Of a stretch of DNA of 32,000 bases, positions 8,554 through 25,535 are shown piece by piece (within the stretch, counting starts at the first letter, position 1; every line of letters begins with the position of its first letter). The DNA is taken from assembly GCF_040207875.1 (NCBI RefSeq), contig NZ_CP157942.1, positions 202,001-234,000 on the forward strand, read 5' to 3'. A program made the translations under genes and the position numbers. This DNA is from Wolbachia endosymbiont of Armadillidium arcangelii (GTDB taxonomy: Bacteria; Pseudomonadota; Alphaproteobacteria; Rickettsiales; Anaplasmataceae). Under the pieces are notes generated by a model. The model did not search any database. It was not told the origin of the DNA and saw only the letters and a list, made by a program, of their open reading frames with translations.

Positions 8554-8760
8554 TTAACCTGTCAATATTATCATCCATGTTATCAAGAAGTTAATTAATG
8601 AGAGAAAAACTGCTGCACTACCTAGATCTTTTACTTTTTTTGAAAGTATATGTTGTTCACTGGAAATACGCTCAATTGTCGTTTCAAAAGCAGTGTTAAC
8701 AATTTCCACAATTAACACCAGGAATAGGCTGCTTATCATTACTGCACGTTCTAGTTGGAT
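8554..8760 (-). pseudogene. dgkA: Diacylglycerol kinase (DgkA) C-terminal half only
   Basis: ERAVMISSLFLVLIVEIVNTAFETTIERISSEQHILSKKVKDLGSAAVFLSLINFLITW aligns from memory with the E. coli DgkA C-terminal half (LLISSVMLVMIVEILNSAIEAVVDRIGSEYHELSGRAKDMGSAAV). A stop lies in frame at 8764-8766, and no N-terminal half was found in any frame upstream. Confidence 0.6.
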
Positions 8761-9506
8761 ACTTCACTAGTACATAAGGAAATAATAAAACCCCAAAACC
8801 TATTAATATCCATTTTGAAATACTATATGCAATGTGTCTATCTATAGCGTACATCTCATGCAAGAATGTTGCAGACCATGCATCTGTAAAGCCTTCTAAT
8901 GGCCCAATCATAAAACCACCGAATAAGCTTATCAATAAAATATCTTTATTGAATATAACCTTGCTTAAATTTCCAATATTTATTTTGTCTGAGGTACCAA
9001 CTCTAGGTATAGACACAAAGGTAGTTAAAGCAAGCAATAATCCGGTTATTATAAATACAGTAAGTCCACCCGAATTCATCAAATAAGATATGTAATGGTT
9101 TAGTGGCAAATATACCACCTAAAATGCCAATAATAGCTGATATGCTAAACATCACAGCGAATTTTTCTCTATGGTAATAGATACTTATTATTTTAAAAAG
9201 TCCAAGTACTGAAGCAGATGATCCAATGCCAGTGATTATTCTTCCAACAATAGAATAACCCCAATTGCTAGAACTAACCAAAGGTAAAGCACCCAAGGAT
9301 GTTAGTGCAATACAAATCGGTACAACAACTTTAGAACCAAATCTATCTAAGAGAATACCTACAGGAATATGTGCTAATACATAGCCTGCATAGTATAACC
9401 CACCAAATTGCCCTATTTCTATTGCTCCTATATTAAACTTTATTGTCAATTCAGAAACTACGACATTTGGAATCATGCGTAATATATATTGGTATGCATA
9501 AAACAA
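8761..9506 (-). pseudogene. MFS transporter, frameshifted and 3'-truncated
   Basis: Two overlapping ORFs (9506->9003 and 9118->8696) read as consecutive MFS segments: FYAYQYILRMIPNVV..LYYAGYVLAHIPVGILLDRFG, then LTVFIITGLL...FTDAWSATFLHEMYAIDRHIA. The frame switch is near 9063-9075, after DEFGW. The frame stays open upstream only to a TAA with no canonical start. Only about 8 of the expected 12 helices are present. Confidence 0.65.
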
Positions 9507-18221: not shown

Positions 18222-19886
18222 ATGGCAATTAATGATTTTGATCAGCAAAGAAGCGCAGAAGTGATTATTAATAATATGCAAAACGTTTTTTGCAAGAAGG
18301 CAAATAAGGCTACTGCCGAAGAAATTAGGCCAGTTGAAGTTGTCATACCTACGCCTAACCAATTCTGTAACAAAGCTAAGGAATGTGAGACTGAAAAAGA
18401 TCGGTGCGAACAAAACAAGCAAACGTGCGAGCAAGATAAGCAGAAGTGCGACCAGGATAAGCAAATATGCGAGCAAGATAAGCAGAAGTGCGATCAGGAC
18501 AAGCAGAAGTGCGACCAGGATAAGCAAATATGCGAGCAAGATAAGCAGAAGTGTGATCAGGATAAGCTAACATGCGAGCAGGACAAGCAGAAGTGCGATC
18601 AGGATAAGCAAGTATGCGAGCAAGATAAGCAGAAGTGCGATCAGGATAAGCAAATATGCGAGCAAGACAAGCAGAAGTGTGATCAAGACAAGCAGAAGTG
18701 CGACCAGGATAAGCAAACGTGCGAGCAAGACAAGCAGAAGTGCGATCAGGATAAGCAAATATGCGAGCAAGATAAGCAGAAGTGCGATCAGGATAAGCAA
18801 ATATGCGAGCAAGATAAGCAGAAGTGTGATCAGGATAAGCTAACATGCGAGCAAGATAAGCAGAAGTGTGATCAGGATAAGCTAACATGCGAGCAAGATA
18901 AGCAGAAGTGTGATCAGGATAAGCAGAAGTGCGATCAGGATAAGCAAACGTGCGAGCAAGATAAACAGAAGTGCGAAGATCGAGCTAAAAGCTGTCAAAA
19001 CGAGAAGGATAAGTGTGATATAGAAAACAATCAGCTAATAAGGGATATAGAACGTTGTAGAACAATAAAAGAAAGACTTGATAAAGAAGCTCTGGAGCTC
19101 AAAAGCAAGATAGAGTGCTTTAAAGCTGTAAAGGAAGGGTGTGATAAAGAGAAGCAGCAACTCAACAGCAAAATATATGATCTTGAAGATGAAAAGCTAA
19201 AACTTGGTAGAGACTTAGAACGAAATAAAAAAGAAAAAGAGGAATGTGACAAAGAGACTCTTAAGCTTGAAGGCAAGATAAAATGCTATAGAGCTGAAAA
19301 AGAAGGATGTGATGAAGAAAAGCAGCAACTCAGAGACAAAATACGTGATCTTGAAGGTGAGAAGCATAAGCTTGATACAAAAATTATTGAACTCAAAAGA
19401 GATATAGAACGGTGTAAAGATGAAAAATGTGAAGTAAAAAAAGAATATTGCACTAAGACAGAAGAAATCGAAAGCAATCTTAAAATGACTTTTGAATCAG
19501 AAAAAAGTAAAGAAATAGATTGTGAATATCTTAATAAGCTAAGAGATGATCTGGTAGTAAAATCAATTAAAACTGGTGAAAAAGCTGGCAGTGCAAATAT
19601 ATCATACTGGTATTTTGAAGATGATAAATTATATTACGGTAAGCAAGGTACTATAACAAGTCCATATGAATTAGAAAAAGACAGCATTTACTTAAAGGTG
19701 CTGACTAGTAATGAGCAAAAACCGTACTATCAATTAGGTATCTGCGACAAAGGTGGTAGCTTAGTTACAAAGCTTGATTTGTCTACAGATGATATAGATA
19801 TAAGCATATGTAACATGGTAGGTGGAGAGAGGATCACTGCCATTAAGTTAAGGGAAAGTGATGGACTGTATTGTAAAATCAGGTAA
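18222..19886 (+). CDS. Cysteine-heptad repeat / coiled-coil protein; the 3' end is replaced by IS4 sequence
   Basis: 27 near-identical C-[DE]-Q-D-K-[QL]-x heptads, then 3 degenerate heptads, a diverged 2 x 56-aa K/E-rich duplication (aa 287-398), and a non-repetitive C-terminal domain. The last 16 codons and the stop (from 19834) lie inside the IS4 terminal repeat. Confidence 0.75.
   Translation: MAINDFDQQRSAEVIINNMQNVFCKKANKATAEEIRPVEVVIPTPNQFCNKAKECETEKDRCEQNKQTCEQDKQKCDQDKQICEQDKQKCDQDKQKCDQDKQICEQDKQKCDQDKLTCEQDKQKCDQDKQVCEQDKQKCDQDKQICEQDKQKCDQDKQKCDQDKQTCEQDKQKCDQDKQICEQDKQKCDQDKQICEQDKQKCDQDKLTCEQDKQKCDQDKLTCEQDKQKCDQDKQKCDQDKQTCEQDKQKCEDRAKSCQNEKDKCDIENNQLIRDIERCRTIKERLDKEALELKSKIECFKAVKEGCDKEKQQLNSKIYDLEDEKLKLGRDLERNKKEKEECDKETLKLEGKIKCYRAEKEGCDEEKQQLRDKIRDLEGEKHKLDTKIIELKRDIERCKDEKCEVKKEYCTKTEEIESNLKMTFESEKSKEIDCEYLNKLRDDLVVKSIKTGEKAGSANISYWYFEDDKLYYGKQGTITSPYELEKDSIYLKVLTSNEQKPYYQLGICDKGGSLVTKLDLSTDDIDISICNMVGGERITAIKLRESDGLYCKIR
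18405..18971 (+). repeat. 21-bp coding minisatellite, 27 units (tgcga[gc]ca[ag]ga[tc]aagca[ga]a[ac]g-type)
   Basis: Directly visible periodicity. Codons 62-250 of the 554-aa ORF. All overlapping ORFs in other frames or on the other strand show the same 7-aa period. Confidence 0.95.
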
Positions 19887-21410
19887 GATCCACAAATTAA
19901 AAGAAGTAATGACATGAGTAAAAAAAAGAATAATCATGTTTATAAAAAATAAATTGATGAGTTTAAACTTTATAAACGCACACAGAGCATCCTCAAAAGA
20001 CTTCTCACGAAAAAGAAAGCTGCCCTTCATTAATGTATTTCTCCTGATTTTTAGAAAGAGTGTAAAGTCATTACAAGTAATGCTTAATGAGTTTGTTCTG
20101 CATACAAGAAAAGATTACACAATTACGGCAAGTGCATTTACTCAAGCAAGAAAGAAGCTAAAGCATACTGCGTTTTCAGAGTTAAATGATGATATAGTTT
20201 CCCTATACTACCAAGATCAGGAATTTAAAACCCACCATGGCTTCAGAGTACTTGCATTTGATGCTTCAATACTGATTCTGCCAAAGAGCGACAAAATAAT
20301 AGGCGAGTTTGGCTCAAGAGCAGTATGGAATGGAATCCAGAGATTTGAAGACTATACAAGTGCAACCTTTGAAGTTTGCTACGATGTGCTAAATAATATT
20401 GCAATAAAATCTGTGCTAAGTAGAGGTGACAGCTATGAGGTTGATTTAGCGATCGGTATGCTTGAATCCATAAAATCAGACGATTTGTTAATCTGTGATA
20501 GAGGATACGTATCTTATCGATTTCTTGCTGAGCTTACAGGAAGGAAAATCAATTATATAATTCGCTGTCCAAGTTCGTCTTTCAATGAAATAAACGCTAT
20601 GTTTAAGCCGGAAAGCCCATCTAGTATGGTGGTAGTGTCTACCGCACCTATTAAAGTAGCAAGACAGCTACGAAAGCTAGGATTACCTGATGAGATGAAA
20701 TTCAGGTTAGTCAAAATAATACTTTCTTCTGGAGAAGTTGAAGTGTTAGTAACATCTCTGTTAGATGAGCAAAGTTTTACAGTCGAAGAGTTTGAGAGAT
20801 TATATTACTTGCGCTGGGGAGTAGAAACATTTTTTTCTAGGCTGAAGGGAAGATTAAATTTAGAGAATTTCACAGGAAAAAGTATTGAAACTATCAAGTA
20901 GGATTTTTGGTCAACTATCTTCATCAGTAATCTAGAAAGTATCATGATAGAAGATGATGAAGAGACATTGAGCGCACAGAATAGTAAACTAAAAAAAAGC
21001 ATCAATAAATCTGTCTCATTTAATGCGATTAAAAACTTAGCCTTTGATATTTTTTCTACAGAGTCAGACATAGACTGCATTATGGATCGACTATCACAGT
21101 TATTTTTGATGAACACTTTAGTGGTAAGAAAAGGGAGAAGAGTTGATCGTCATAAGATATCTGATATTCGTTCACTCAACTACCAGAAAAGAGCTAGAAA
21201 ACATGTGTTTTAAATTCAAGATATCTTTTCAGTATCATTGCATTAGTACATTCTTTGCAAAATAACCTGCAATTATTACTTTTTTAAATAACTTGCACTT
21301 TTCAGACTCTCTTTTCTTAAAAATTCACCCTAGTATTTACCATAATTATCAATCACTTCAAATTTTTTGTCCAATCTTAACTTCTCTTTCCCTTAACTTA
21401 ATGGCAGTGA
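19834..21410 (+). mobile_element. IS4-family insertion sequence, copy 1 (1,577 bp; transposase inactivated)
   Basis: Terminal inverted repeats tcactgccattaagttaagggaaag at 19834-19858, and the reverse complement at 21386-21410. Nearly identical to the copy at 25921-27497, in inverted orientation. Confidence 0.9.
19936..21213 (+). pseudogene. IS4-family DDE transposase with a nonsense mutation (TAG at 20899-20901; CAG in copy 2)
   Basis: The 321-aa and 89-aa ORFs together equal the 425-aa protein of copy 2, apart from Q322->stop. The IS4 Y-(2)-R-(3)-E-(6)-K signature is present: YYLRWGVETFFSRLK. Confidence 0.9.
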
Positions 21411-22408: not shown

Positions 22409-22648
22409 ATGGCGGATTCAAGGATTAATGTAACTTTCAGTAACGAAACCTCAGGTTGTCTTGCTGATTTGGCTAAAGCTACTAAGAAGCCTGTTCAAGA
22501 ATTAGCAGAAAAGTTAATCAGAAGGGCGATTGACGAAGTAGAAGATATTGCACTATCTCAAATTGTTGATGAGTGTGATACCCCAGATATGGAGATGATT
22601 AGAAGTAAGGATATAGACTGGAATACAGTTCTAAAAGATGGAGCATAA
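22409..22648 (+). CDS. RelB/ribbon-helix-helix-type antitoxin (cassette 1)
   Basis: 79 aa (MADSRINVTF...LADLAKATKKPVQELAEKLIRRAI), with an acidic C-terminus. Overlaps the downstream RelE-like gene by 11 nt. Confidence 0.8.
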   Translation: MADSRINVTFSNETSGCLADLAKATKKPVQELAEKLIRRAIDEVEDIALSQIVDECDTPDMEMIRSKDIDWNTVLKDGA

Positions 22649-22937
22649 GCTCAAATACGATATTATCTATTCAAAAAATATTCTTAAGAAAGATCTTCCA
22701 CGCATCTCAAAAGAAATAAGGTCAAGTATCATAAAAGCCATAGAAGAGCGACTGGCAGTTGATCCAATGAAATTTGGTAAACCGTTATATGGTAACTTCA
22801 AAGGACACAGAAGGGTAAGAGTTGATGATTACCGCATTGTCTATCGTGTGGACGTTATAGAATACAAAGTAATTATTGTTTCAATAAAGCACAGAAGTGT
22901 TGTTTATAAGCAAACAAAGTTATCAGATTTATTATAA
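22638..22937 (+). CDS. RelE/ParE-superfamily toxin (cassette 1)
   Basis: 99 aa. PLYGNFKGHRRVRVDDYRIVYRVD...VIIVSIKHRSVVY is the typical RelE/StbE C-terminal pattern. Confidence 0.85.
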   Translation: MEHKLKYDIIYSKNILKKDLPRISKEIRSSIIKAIEERLAVDPMKFGKPLYGNFKGHRRVRVDDYRIVYRVDVIEYKVIIVSIKHRSVVYKQTKLSDLL

Positions 22938-23028: not shown

Positions 23029-23250
23029 ATGGCAGATTCAAGGATTAATGTAACCTTTGATACAGAAACCTCACAACACCTTATTGAGCTGGCTAAGGCT
23101 ACTAAGCAGTCTGTTCAAAAGTTAGCAGGAAAGCTGGTCAAAGAAGCGATCGAGCTTGAAGCAGAAGATATTGCGTTTTCTAAAATTATTAGGGAATTGA
23201 GTGATGATGATGCAGAAGAAATAGAAGATAGTGAAGACATCTGGAAATAA
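23029..23250 (+). CDS. RelB/RHH-type antitoxin (cassette 2)
   Basis: 73 aa, MADSRINVTFDTETSQHLIELAKATKQSVQKLAGKLVKEAI. Overlaps the toxin gene by 20 nt. Confidence 0.8.
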   Translation: MADSRINVTFDTETSQHLIELAKATKQSVQKLAGKLVKEAIELEAEDIAFSKIIRELSDDDAEEIEDSEDIWK

Positions 23251-23539
23251 ACGTTATACTCTCAAATATCTCAAACATGTTATTAAGAGGAATATACCTT
23301 CCTTACCAGAAGACATTAAACCAAGTATTAAAGAAGCAATAAAAGAATATCTAGAGACTGATCCTATTGGTAATGGTGTATCATTACGCAATAGATTAAA
23401 GGGACATCGCAGAATACGAGTGGGTGATTATCGTATCATCTACCGTGTAGATACTGCAAAACGTATAGTAACTGTTGTTTCGATAGGACATAGAGATAAC
23501 ATTTACAATCAGGCAATATTAGACTTACTAAAACGTTAA
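23231..23539 (+). CDS. RelE/ParE-superfamily toxin (cassette 2)
   Basis: 102 aa, LKGHRRIRVGDYRIIYRVD...VTVVSIGHRDNIY. Confidence 0.85.
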   Translation: MKTSGNKRYTLKYLKHVIKRNIPSLPEDIKPSIKEAIKEYLETDPIGNGVSLRNRLKGHRRIRVGDYRIIYRVDTAKRIVTVVSIGHRDNIYNQAILDLLKR

Positions 23540-24405
23540 ATCAATATCCTGCCAGTATTAACTTGATAAGGTACCGTAACCTTTCCAGTTGAGCCGCTTC
23601 TATTCTTTGCAACGTTTATCTCCAGTTCGTTATTAGAGCCTATTTTATAGTAGCTGTCTCTGTAGAGTAGTAAAACTATGTCAGCATCCTGTTCGATGCT
23701 CCCTGACTCTCTTAGGTCTGCTAGTTGCGGTCTTTTGTTTTGCCTTTCTTCTACTCTGCGACTAATTTGTGATAATGCTACAACAGGAACTTCAAAGTCT
23801 TTGGCGATGTTCTTTAAAGTTCTGCTGATCTCTGTTACCTCAAGAGTTCTATTCTCCGTTCTTCCTGATCCTCTGAGTAGCTGCAGATAGTCAATGTAGA
23901 TGCATTTTATGCTGTATCTTTTACAGATTGATGCGATTTTTTTTCTGAGGACATTTAAATCTATATTGCCTGAGTTATCGATGAGAATATTTAGAAAAGT
24001 TATTTGATTTATTCCGCGATATAAAAGATCCATATTTTCATTCTTGAGAATGTTATTTATTGTTTCATTCACTTCGATGCTGATTATTCTATTGATCAAT
24101 TGATTGGCTGACATCTCAAGTGAGAAGAAGCAGATGTATTCATGGTCATTTAAGAGCTTTGCGGCCTGTAAGGCCATGTATAATGCTATTGAGGTCTTAC
24201 CAATTGAAGTACGAGCGGCAAGCACAGTGAGCTCTCCTTCCTTGAAGCCACCTGTTATTCTATCAAGCTCCTCTATTCCTGTGGTCATTCCTTCGATGTC
24301 ACTCGTATTGCTGAGTAGCTTATTGATATAGTTTTTATAGTCTTTGAGATAGTCAAAGATTAACTTGACGTCCTCATCGACCCTGAGCCCTCCTTCCTGA
24401 TCCAT
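23536..24405 (-). CDS. DnaB-like helicase, C-terminal RecA-type ATPase domain only (289 aa)
   Basis: TGIEELDRITGGFKEGELTVLAARTSIGKTS (Walker A), IKCIYIDYLQLL (Walker B), ISRTLKNIAKDFEVPVVALSQISRRVE, LADLRESGSIEQDADIVLLLYRD. The N-terminal DnaB domain is absent. Its stop overlaps the toxin-2 stop on the opposite strand (TTAA at 23536-23539). Confidence 0.85.
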   Translation of the reverse strand: MDQEGGLRVDEDVKLIFDYLKDYKNYINKLLSNTSDIEGMTTGIEELDRITGGFKEGELTVLAARTSIGKTSIALYMALQAAKLLNDHEYICFFSLEMSANQLINRIISIEVNETINNILKNENMDLLYRGINQITFLNILIDNSGNIDLNVLRKKIASICKRYSIKCIYIDYLQLLRGSGRTENRTLEVTEISRTLKNIAKDFEVPVVALSQISRRVEERQNKRPQLADLRESGSIEQDADIVLLLYRDSYYKIGSNNELEINVAKNRSGSTGKVTVPYQVNTGRILI

Positions 24406-24604: not shown

Positions 24605-24889
24605 CTACAGTAAATCTAATGGTATCTTATCATAAACATCTTTTCTATATCCTACTGAAGCAGGAATTATTTTATGTTCTGCAATGTTTATACGGTACAC
24701 AATACGACAATCTTTAGTTCTGAAGCTTCTATATCCTTTCAAATTACCACTTAGCGGTTTACCAACCTTGAATGGATTAAATGCAATTTCGTCTTCTATG
24801 AGTTTTTTTATTTTTTTTCTTATTTCTGGTGACAAGGGACGAAAATCTCTCTTAAAGATTTTTTCTGGGTAATCAACCTCATACTTCAC
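24605..24889 (-). CDS. RelE/ParE-superfamily toxin (cassette 3), divergent at conserved positions
   Basis: 94 aa, PLSGNLKGYRSFRTKDCRIVYRIN...GYRKDVY. It has the same architecture as the other three toxins, but GDYR is replaced by KDCR and HR by YR. Confidence 0.7.
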   Translation of the reverse strand: MKYEVDYPEKIFKRDFRPLSPEIRKKIKKLIEDEIAFNPFKVGKPLSGNLKGYRSFRTKDCRIVYRINIAEHKIIPASVGYRKDVYDKIPLDLL

Positions 24890-24896
24890 AATTTAT

Positions 24897-25133
24897 TTAT
24901 GCAGATAATAGTGTATCCCAATCTACATCACCGCCTTTAATCATCTTTGCATCAGGAGAATCAGTTTCCTTGATGATTTTCGAGAGTGCGATATTTTCAA
25001 TTTCACATTCGATTCCATCTATGACTAACCTTTTTGCTAACTTTTCAACTGACTCTTTGTTGAATGTAGCTAGTTGGGTGAGATTGTGGAGAGCTTTTGA
25101 GTTGAGTGTTATAACAACTTTTGAATCATCCAT
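24897..25133 (-). CDS. RelB/RHH-type antitoxin (cassette 3)
   Basis: MDDSKVVITLNSKALHNLTQLATFNKESVEKLAKRLVIDGI. I moved the start to ATG 25133, because the conserved leader ggtaaaattt directly precedes it, as in the other cassettes. Confidence 0.7.
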   Translation of the reverse strand: MDDSKVVITLNSKALHNLTQLATFNKESVEKLAKRLVIDGIECEIENIALSKIIKETDSPDAKMIKGGDVDWDTLLSA

Positions 25134-25161
25134 AAATTTTACCAAGATATACTGCTACATA

Positions 25162-25250: not shown

Positions 25251-25535
25251 CTAACTTTTATAGATGTATTCTCTATGCTCTATTGCAGTAATTATTACTG
25301 TACGTTCTAATTTACTTATCCTATAAACCAAACGATAATCACCAGATCGTATTCTACGATGTCCTTTGAACTCACCGAGTAATGGATCTCCTGCTTTTTC
25401 AGGAGAAAGTGTAAGACGCTCTTTTACAATTTCTTTTATCCTTGACCATATTGTCTTTGGAAGGTTTGAAATGTCTTTGTGAACTACATTTTCCTCATAG
25501 CAGATTAAATACTTATCACCAGTTGATGTCTTCAT
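25251..25535 (-). CDS. RelE/ParE-superfamily toxin (cassette 4)
   Basis: PLLGEFKGHRRIRSGDYRLVYRIS...VIITAIEHREYIY. The start is set at ATG 25535 (MKTSTGDKY...). This parallels MKTSGNKRY of toxin 2 and gives the same 20-nt overlap with the antitoxin gene. Confidence 0.8.
   Translation of the reverse strand: MKTSTGDKYLICYEENVVHKDISNLPKTIWSRIKEIVKERLTLSPEKAGDPLLGEFKGHRRIRSGDYRLVYRISKLERTVIITAIEHREYIYKS

Follow-up and report, generated by a model that had tools for sequence, protein, structure and literature searches.

A minisatellite-encoded cysteine-heptad array in an IS-truncated accessory gene of Wolbachia

The open reading frame and its cysteine array

The window analysed here is the whole 32,000-nt stretch at positions 202,001 to 234,000 of contig NZ_CP157942.1 (assembly GCF_040207875.1), from the Wolbachia endosymbiont of Armadillidium arcangelii. 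On its forward strand, an open reading frame (ORF) at 18222-19886 encodes a protein of 554 aa in which a unique N-terminus is followed by an array of heptads that each begin with cysteine, then by a coiled coil of the Leu/Ile type and finally by a conserved family domain; the stop and the 17 codons before it are read from the terminal end of an insertion sequence (IS). The N-terminal 54 aa (18222-18383) are modelled by AlphaFold2 as non-helical, at low confidence. They contain no hydrophobic stretch resembling a signal peptide, and a HMMER search of 1.84 billion representatives found no homolog of them.

The Cys-heptad array occupies 18384-19034 (aa 55-271) and comprises 31 units, every one of which has Cys at position 1 (31/31). 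The cysteines lie at aa 55, 62, 69 and so on to 265, giving 30 consecutive spacings of exactly 7 residues, and the periodicity described in the first-pass annotation of this DNA is thus confirmed with all units in register; the 31 “turns” given there are, however, 31 heptads, which correspond to ~62 helical turns and a length of ~32 nm. Its count of 27 near-perfect units is a fair one, made up of 26 units that match C[DE]QDK[QL][KITV] exactly (units 3-28) together with unit 2, which reads CEQNKQT, and the degenerate heptads that it listed at the edges are all present, CETEKDR before the core and CEDRAKS, CQNEKDK and CDIENNQ after it. The statement that every other position is polar or charged does not hold, as an apolar residue is found at positions 6/7 in 9 units (Leu in 3, Ile or Val in 6). 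In composition the array is 29% E+K+R, 21% D, 27% Q and 14% C, with 50% of its residues charged and no Arg, and opposite-charge pairs occur at ~0.21-0.22 per residue for both the i/i+3 and the i/i+4 spacing. A six-frame scan of the window found no other long C-x6 run, the only further occurrence being a run of 4 Cys in an opposite-strand frame of the array itself.

With 31 regularly spaced thiols and 14% Cys, the array might be taken for a metallothionein-like polythiol, serving the symbiont or its host as a buffer for Zn, Cu or Cd, and designed coiled coils with Cys in the core do bind metals, as Cys3 sites (PMC10299331). The array has, however, no CxC or CxxC clusters, all of its Cys spacings being exactly 7; nor are there His partners, or metal-homeostasis genes nearby in the window. 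Cysteines 7 residues apart on one helix are ~10 Å apart, so that a single chain cannot chelate an ion between them, and metal chemistry therefore needs oligomerisation. A role as a metal buffer seems to us very improbable.

Repeat structure, codon-level variation and database matches

At the DNA level, Tandem Repeats Finder delimits the array as 18405-18976 and reports periods of 42, 63 and 147. Compared with itself, the array is 82% identical when shifted by 42 nt versus 71% when shifted by 21 nt, and because the longer shift gives the higher identity the basic unit is a 42-bp di-heptad, CEQDKQK-CDQDKQ[I/T/V/K], with occasional tri-heptads. The core minisatellite (18405-18971, forward strand) consists of 27 near-identical 21-bp units, representing 14 distinct 21-mers, arranged as these 42-bp di-heptads, and the longest exact duplicates inside the array measure 80 nt and 65 nt. 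The higher-order pattern of unit variants noticed in the first-pass annotation is seen in these periods and internal duplicates. The array is not uniform enough to look like an assembly artefact and bears the marks of fairly recent duplication; it arose by tandem duplication and is not a chance pattern. We infer that its copy number may vary from strain to strain.

The copies stand head to tail, the period (21/42) is a multiple of three, the core copies number 27 and the ORF is intact throughout, as befits a coding minisatellite. Since several frames of a stop-free repeat are open, we examined which codon positions vary. Across the 27 core units all of the third-codon columns are variable (7/7), versus 4/14 of the first and second columns combined (hypergeometric P = 0.0028 for all 7 third positions falling among the 11 variable columns); three of those four correspond to residues 6 and 7, and the fourth to a lone D-to-N change in unit 2. 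The Cys codon is TG[CT] in 27/27 units (22 TGC, 5 TGT), and Cys, Q3, D4 and K5 are all preserved through synonymous changes. In the other two forward-strand frames the differences are nearly all non-synonymous and stops are present, and stop codons also occur in two of the three reverse-strand frames. Because variation is biased to third codon positions and the frame is contiguous with a downstream domain that has true homologs, we read the array as a protein-coding minisatellite that has evolved under purifying selection on the peptide; the earlier view of a repeat that is real and coding is borne out by the same evidence and by the open frame.

Searches of Pfam, NCBIfam and PHROGs yielded no family for the array, only sub-threshold coiled-coil noise (ERM_helical, DUF7491 and SMC), and among PDB sequences the only matches were streptococcal M-like coiled coils, the IgA receptor 8skv and M6 9mmx (E 8.6e-6 and 5e-4). 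The repeat thus belongs to no described family in these libraries, as the first-pass annotation had supposed, and the Cys-heptad motif is apparently undescribed. The likeness to M and M-like proteins lies in a long, parallel alpha-helical rod made of tandem repeats in frame, in which the heptads are non-ideal and charged residues occupy core positions. M proteins differ in carrying a signal peptide and an LPXTG anchor, in their Leu/Ile/Ala cores and in having essentially no Cys, so that the similarity is compositional only. The number of repeats in M proteins varies by recombination.

An exact look-up of the protein in the protein collection returned no record, and scanning 185,579 species genomes with it found no relative. 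There was no match in the corresponding Wolbachia loci examined, nor did a degenerate DNA pattern for the di-heptad match anything in metagenome and viral contigs; an ortholog of the array was found in none of the protein, genome, metagenome or viral collections searched. A word-indexed search of 5.8 billion proteins gave 3 matches, which we rejected as unrelated: they carry a Cys-free heptad repeat, DQ[GD]KQIA, and the resemblance is one of composition only. The matches from the HMMER search of 1.84 billion representatives fall into two groups, those confined to the repeat region and those to the C-terminal domain, which are described further below. The repeat-only matches are compositional, being either coiled coils with Q/K/D/E heptads or ORFs that run across unrelated 21-bp repeats; P0010, P0015, P0032, P0059 and P0111, which have long C-x6 runs, look like translations of such unrelated DNA repeats and were set aside as non-relatives.

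Long heptad arrays that pair Cys at position 1 with Leu or Lys at position 5 (for example TCEGDLGVCEGDLATTSGTLS and CNTDKNNCNGNLTI) also occur in three further database proteins, P0019, P0020 and P0077, which are unrelated to the Wolbachia protein; this register thus has natural examples elsewhere. In P0019 the array accompanies RTX repeats and in P0020 it accompanies EGF/teneurin-like domains, with units such as CNTDKNT and CNGNLTI, the former sharing C-x2-D-K-x-T with CDQDKQT of the Wolbachia array; no Pfam model covers the heptad repeat of any of the three. Unlike the Wolbachia protein, they mostly have Leu at the second core position, and they are apparently secreted, in contexts of extracellular type. 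No flanking homology is shared, and the likeness is on that ground best read as convergent rather than familial. Cys-core heptads may thus be an uncurated, convergent motif, a class of disulfide-capable coiled coils, of which the Wolbachia array would be the most extreme form, all Cys and no Leu, among the matches that we inspected.

Heptad register and the predicted rod

With heptad positions counted from Cys55, the register runs unbroken across 50 heptads (aa 55-404, ~350 residues) with no stutter. The array is followed by a canonical rod segment (19035-19433, forward strand; aa 272-404) of 19 heptads in the same register, in which position 1 is Leu in 11, Cys in 5, Phe in 1 and Tyr in 1 (18/19), as compared with Cys in 31/31 heptads of the array. 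Position 5 is Lys in 29/31 array heptads; downstream it is Ile, Leu or Ala in 9/19 and Lys in 9/19, with Ile and Lys alternating. On the basis of this 1-and-5 spacing, position 1 is assigned as “d” and position 5 as “a”. The canonical rod contains a 168-nt (56-aa) tandem duplication of its own, 19041-19208 and 19209-19376 at 74% identity, and its Cys heptads include C307-DKEKQQ and C363-DEEKQQ.

Because the register runs on and position 1 downstream is Leu, Cys, Phe or Tyr in 18/19 heptads, we interpret the array as the expanded, Cys-substituted N-terminal 31 heptads of one long coiled-coil-type rod. The array as first described is a real repeat, but it is not free-standing, its register continuing into 19 further heptads. 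Cys would then occupy a genuine core position of the rod, and a continuous stripe of thiols facing a partner helix is for that reason geometrically plausible.

Structure prediction agrees with the long helix proposed in the first-pass annotation: AlphaFold2, run as a single chain on a 7-sequence alignment, predicts helix for aa 45-402, if at low overall confidence, with a predicted local distance difference test score (pLDDT) of 80-87 across most of aa 50-180. The modelled chain is broken at residues 111-114 and 238-243, which we take to be an artefact of monomer modelling. Two features of a canonical coiled coil are thus found, a long uninterrupted heptad periodicity and a predicted helix, whereas hydrophobic residues at both “a” and “d” are not: in the array core only position 1, the Cys, is apolar, position 5 being the nearly constant Lys. 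The description of the array as something other than a normal hydrophobic-core coiled coil is therefore upheld.

Single alpha-helix (SAH) domains are frequently mis-scored as coiled coils (PMC8203680, PMC5378345), and the array could instead be a monomeric SAH-like spacer, a charge-stabilised linker of variable length in which Cys is a passenger amplified with the unit. It is predicted to be helical, it combines 50% charged residues with 27% Gln, its opposite-charge pairs come to ~0.2 i/i+3 and ~0.2 i/i+4 per residue, and each heptad has only one weakly hydrophobic position. Its composition is nevertheless far from the ER/K type, since E+K+R amount to 29%, Asp is used and not Glu, Arg is absent and 14% of residues are Cys, forming a seam at every seventh residue. 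Moreover, the Cys position is the Leu-type position (18/19) of the contiguous canonical coiled coil, and Cys has been retained through the synonymous TGC/TGT changes. We consider such a spacer fairly unlikely; the array appears to resemble a coiled-coil heptad repeat while being neither a canonical leucine zipper, nor an ER/K SAH domain, nor a metallothionein.

As a whole, the locus is best explained, and we think rather probably so, as a lineage-specific coding minisatellite encoding a Cys-core heptad rod in an IS-truncated Wolbachia accessory gene. The array would have grown out of one of the rod's ordinary Cys-containing heptads, comparable to those at C307 and C363, through slippage or unequal recombination. 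The rod would form a homo-oligomer whose chains are in register; this arrangement, with Cys at “d” and Lys at “a”, would point to dimers, since Lys at “a” is tolerated in dimers and favours them. In each of the 31 layers, thiols from different chains would meet. As every heptad offers a single weakly hydrophobic core residue, the reduced chains would associate only marginally, and the assembly could be locked either by oxidation, giving an interchain disulfide ladder, or by thiophilic metal ions bridging the chains, and array length would set the length of the rod, ~32 nm for the array alone. This disulfide or metal chemistry is what we infer from the sequence. It is distinctly unlikely, in our estimate, that the array is a natural “poly-cysteine zipper” with up to 31 thiol layers that assembles or stiffens only when oxidised or metal-bridged; if true, it would give an intracellular symbiont a redox- or metal-gated scaffold of tunable length, and would join the wider uncurated class of Cys-core heptad proteins that includes P0019, P0020 and P0077.

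Several points weigh against the explanation of a Cys-core rod. If Cys is at “d”, positions “e” and “g” are both acidic and would repel each other in a parallel homodimer unless the Lys at “a” compensates, and Asp is a poor helix former. The protein has no signal peptide, and the reducing cytoplasm of bacterium and host alike speaks against standing disulfides; together these lower the prior for a standing disulfide ladder unless the protein is exported. With one genome and no ortholog to compare, the Cys stripe can be called conserved only within the array and not across lineages, and part of its uniformity could come from recent amplification of one Cys-containing unit. The AlphaFold2 model as a whole is of low confidence (mean pLDDT 53, predicted template-modelling score 0.31), and a scan for promoters and terminators gave nothing above the shuffled background. 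Finally, the gene is cut short and its product is missing from the protein collections, which is consistent with its treatment as a pseudogene.

Some described systems come close to such a core. The leucine zipper of the Nek2 kinase is “undecided”, with one core position filled, marginal stability and an ambiguous register (PMC3149346); like it, the array has one core position consistently occupied and the other charged, but the Nek2 zipper uses Leu, over few heptads and in no repeat array, whereas here the residue is Cys for 31 heptads. In the engineered “cysteine zipper” of respiratory syncytial virus F, Cys at an “a” or “d” core position forms interchain disulfide rings (PMC4476739), and in a designed Ni(Cys)3 trimeric coiled coil core Cys serves as a thiolate metal site (PMC10299331). 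These engineered objects are man-made and have 1-4 Cys layers within a Leu/Ile core, whereas in the array every layer would be Cys, and no other core residue would be hydrophobic; no natural counterpart of an all-Cys core was found in the curated libraries. A natural protein with core Cys in 31 consecutive heptads, preserved by selection on the reading frame, would be a test case for thiol chemistry as opposed to hydrophobic packing. To our knowledge, Cys-core coiled coils are known almost only as engineered objects. The gene is likewise a candidate fast-evolving accessory protein of variable repeat length, and a possible strain-typing marker for isopod-associated Wolbachia, although its value is limited at present to that of a single genome, an IS-truncated gene and sequence-level evidence.

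The conserved domain, the insertion sequence and the accessory island

The conserved domain (19428-19832, forward strand; aa 403-537) is 35-44% identical to hypothetical proteins of Wolbachia and Candidatus Mesenet. HMMER recovered P0012, P0057, P0068, P0074 and P0108 as true homologs over aa 420-549 (34-42% identity, E 1e-20 to 1e-9), and phmmer against P0012 gave E 1.7e-20 over aa 429-540. A further search and a cluster look-up assign the members to Wolbachia of Xenopsylla cheopis, of Lepidoptera (group B) and of Nasonia giraulti, to records under the name W. pipientis and to Ca. Mesenet, and from these matches we take the family to be restricted to Wolbachia and Ca. Mesenet. All are annotated “hypothetical”, many are truncated, and none has a match in Pfam, NCBIfam or PHROG. 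A relative was sought in IMG/VR as well and none was found, so that an association of the family with phage WO, which the PHROG search also failed to indicate, was rejected.

In a 10-sequence alignment, 16 columns are invariant from Cys403 on, the invariant residues of aa 403-537 being C, D, VK, G, N, W, F, Y, CD-G and CN; the family includes P0012, P0154-P0157, P0074, P0068 and P0108. The Cys-heptad array is found in no homolog of this alignment. In P0157 the variable linker between two conserved Cys bears an EKLE coiled-coil insert that lacks Cys, and on this evidence the linker looks to be a hot spot at which helical segments are inserted. Where the present protein has its rod, the homologs have a beta-rich N-terminal domain of ~170 aa, and those of full length continue for ~137 aa more, ending LLDDLLCL..LQDG.QIIG, where the present protein is cut by the IS. 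In an AlphaFold2 model of P0156, confidence is confined to the N-terminal domain that is absent here; the shared region has a pLDDT of 26-63, too low for a fold search to say anything about the present protein. We regard the gene as a truncated, chimeric and partial member of the family, in which the middle domain is recognisable and the N- and C-terminal regions are not. The neighbouring upstream ORF (17662-18180) was considered as the detached N-terminal domain of the family and rejected (BLASTP E > 0.8; hhalign probability 0.13%).

The IS belongs to the IS4 family. Copy 1 (19834-21409, forward strand) is nearly intact, 1576 nt long with 28-nt terminal inverted repeats, and it enters the ORF at nt 19834, which is codon 538, with the loss of ~137 aa or about one third of the conserved region of the family; the disruption of the 3' end suspected in the first-pass annotation is thereby located. 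Copy 2 (25922-27497, reverse strand) is inverted relative to copy 1 and encodes an intact transposase of 425 aa (26118-27395). The transposase of the element matches NF033592 at 7.9e-59 and also PF01609. The two copies differ at 3/1576 nt, and one of these differences makes the stop codon at 20899-20901 that breaks the transposase ORF of copy 1. Such near identity shows that the disruption is recent. A search of the IS element against plasmids gave no match. The flanks of copy 2 carry a short additional inverted repeat (ATGCCAG...) and no direct repeat.

No target-site duplication was found for copy 1, including in any pairing of the flanks of both copies, and tblastn found the missing ~137-aa coding part nowhere in the window. 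Both observations suggest that the 3' part was probably lost by an IS-mediated deletion or rearrangement; its displacement by inversion between the two IS copies was rejected on the same two grounds, the lack of a tblastn match in the window and of matching target-site duplications. The inverted pair could in principle invert the 4.5 kb that lies between the copies.

The present copy of the gene has probably been recently disabled or altered by the IS insertion, and it is possible, if on balance doubtful, that the array is the remnant of a decaying pseudogene, a by-product of neutral slippage with no present biological role. The cut at codon 538, with the remaining ~137 aa nowhere in the window, would fit this, as would the setting, an island full of broken genes that include a split ankyrin-repeat gene and fragments of a major-facilitator-type transporter, of DnaB and of an IS256-like transposase; in addition, the protein is absent from the protein collections, in which the identical protein of its upstream neighbour (P0174) is present. 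On the other side, 537 codons are still open, the third-codon bias shows past selection on the frame, and the mere 3/1576 nt that separate the IS copies make the disruption a recent one. Production of a truncated rod would still be possible. To judge from the codon bias and the young age of the IS, the array was still functional until a short time ago.

The upstream neighbour (17662-18180, forward strand) encodes 172 aa, is co-oriented with the array gene and ends 41 nt before its ATG, making it a possible operon partner; its product is 100% identical to P0174, a hypothetical protein of the Wolbachia endosymbiont of Armadillidium arcangelii. The window's housekeeping genes are those for a methylmalonyl-CoA decarboxylase alpha-type carboxyltransferase, fpg, pdxH, comEC and rluD; the RluD of the window is 92-93% identical to that of Wolbachia genomes, and an exact protein look-up of the fpg product gave no record. 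Nucleotide synteny with other Wolbachia ends at ~8754 and resumes at ~30432, which places the array gene, as we read it, inside a non-syntenic accessory island of ~20 kb. The island separates rluD from the segment 30432-32000, which in the Wolbachia of Tribolium confusum (wCon) sits only ~2.4 kb from rluD. The island contains repeat proteins, IS elements and transposase fragments, toxin-antitoxin genes and a DnaB fragment.

Two further repeat genes were seen in the island. An ankyrin-repeat gene (10053-11241, forward strand), whose tandem array has a period of 99 bp (33 aa), now consists of three ORFs, the breaks being an in-frame stop at 10416-10418 and a change of frame before 10849; it is probably a pseudogene. 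On the reverse strand, 14532-17276 encodes a protein of 914 aa with N-terminal leucine-rich repeats of the RI type (LRR_6), showing a 72-bp DNA period at 16596-17058, followed by a long middle part that is unique and, at the C-terminus, by a hydrophobic membrane anchor rich in Cys; the protein appears to be a candidate effector of eukaryote-like type.

Between the inverted IS4 copies lie four pairs, or remnants of pairs, of a RelB-like antitoxin and a RelE-like toxin, at 22409-22937 and 23029-23539 on the forward strand and at 24605-25145 and 25251-25577 on the reverse strand, and among them the C-terminal fragment of a DnaB-like helicase (23536-24405, reverse strand). The adjacent reverse-strand ORFs 12505-13332 and 13336-13926 lie elsewhere in the island; the first matches positions 508-652 of the 974 of phrog_16592 (E 2e-37), a phage family without assigned function, and may be a fragment of a larger phage-associated protein. 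By eye, 12063-12326 (reverse strand) resembles a short fragment of a mutator/IS256-type transposase, and 8696-9506 (reverse strand) resembles two overlapping fragments of a major-facilitator-type transporter; these would be further gene decay at the island edge.

Two small tandem paralogous ORFs on the reverse strand, 27784-28110 and 28226-28573, encode 108 and 115 aa, share ~80-89% nt identity and have signal-peptide-like N-termini (MKNFLLLVALILSF...). Short palindromic or inverted repeats at 30313-30486, 27586-27620 and 30370-30404 have the common motif CCCAGTG...CACTGGGATGAC, which occurs at several intergenic sites and may represent a miniature repeat family of this genome.

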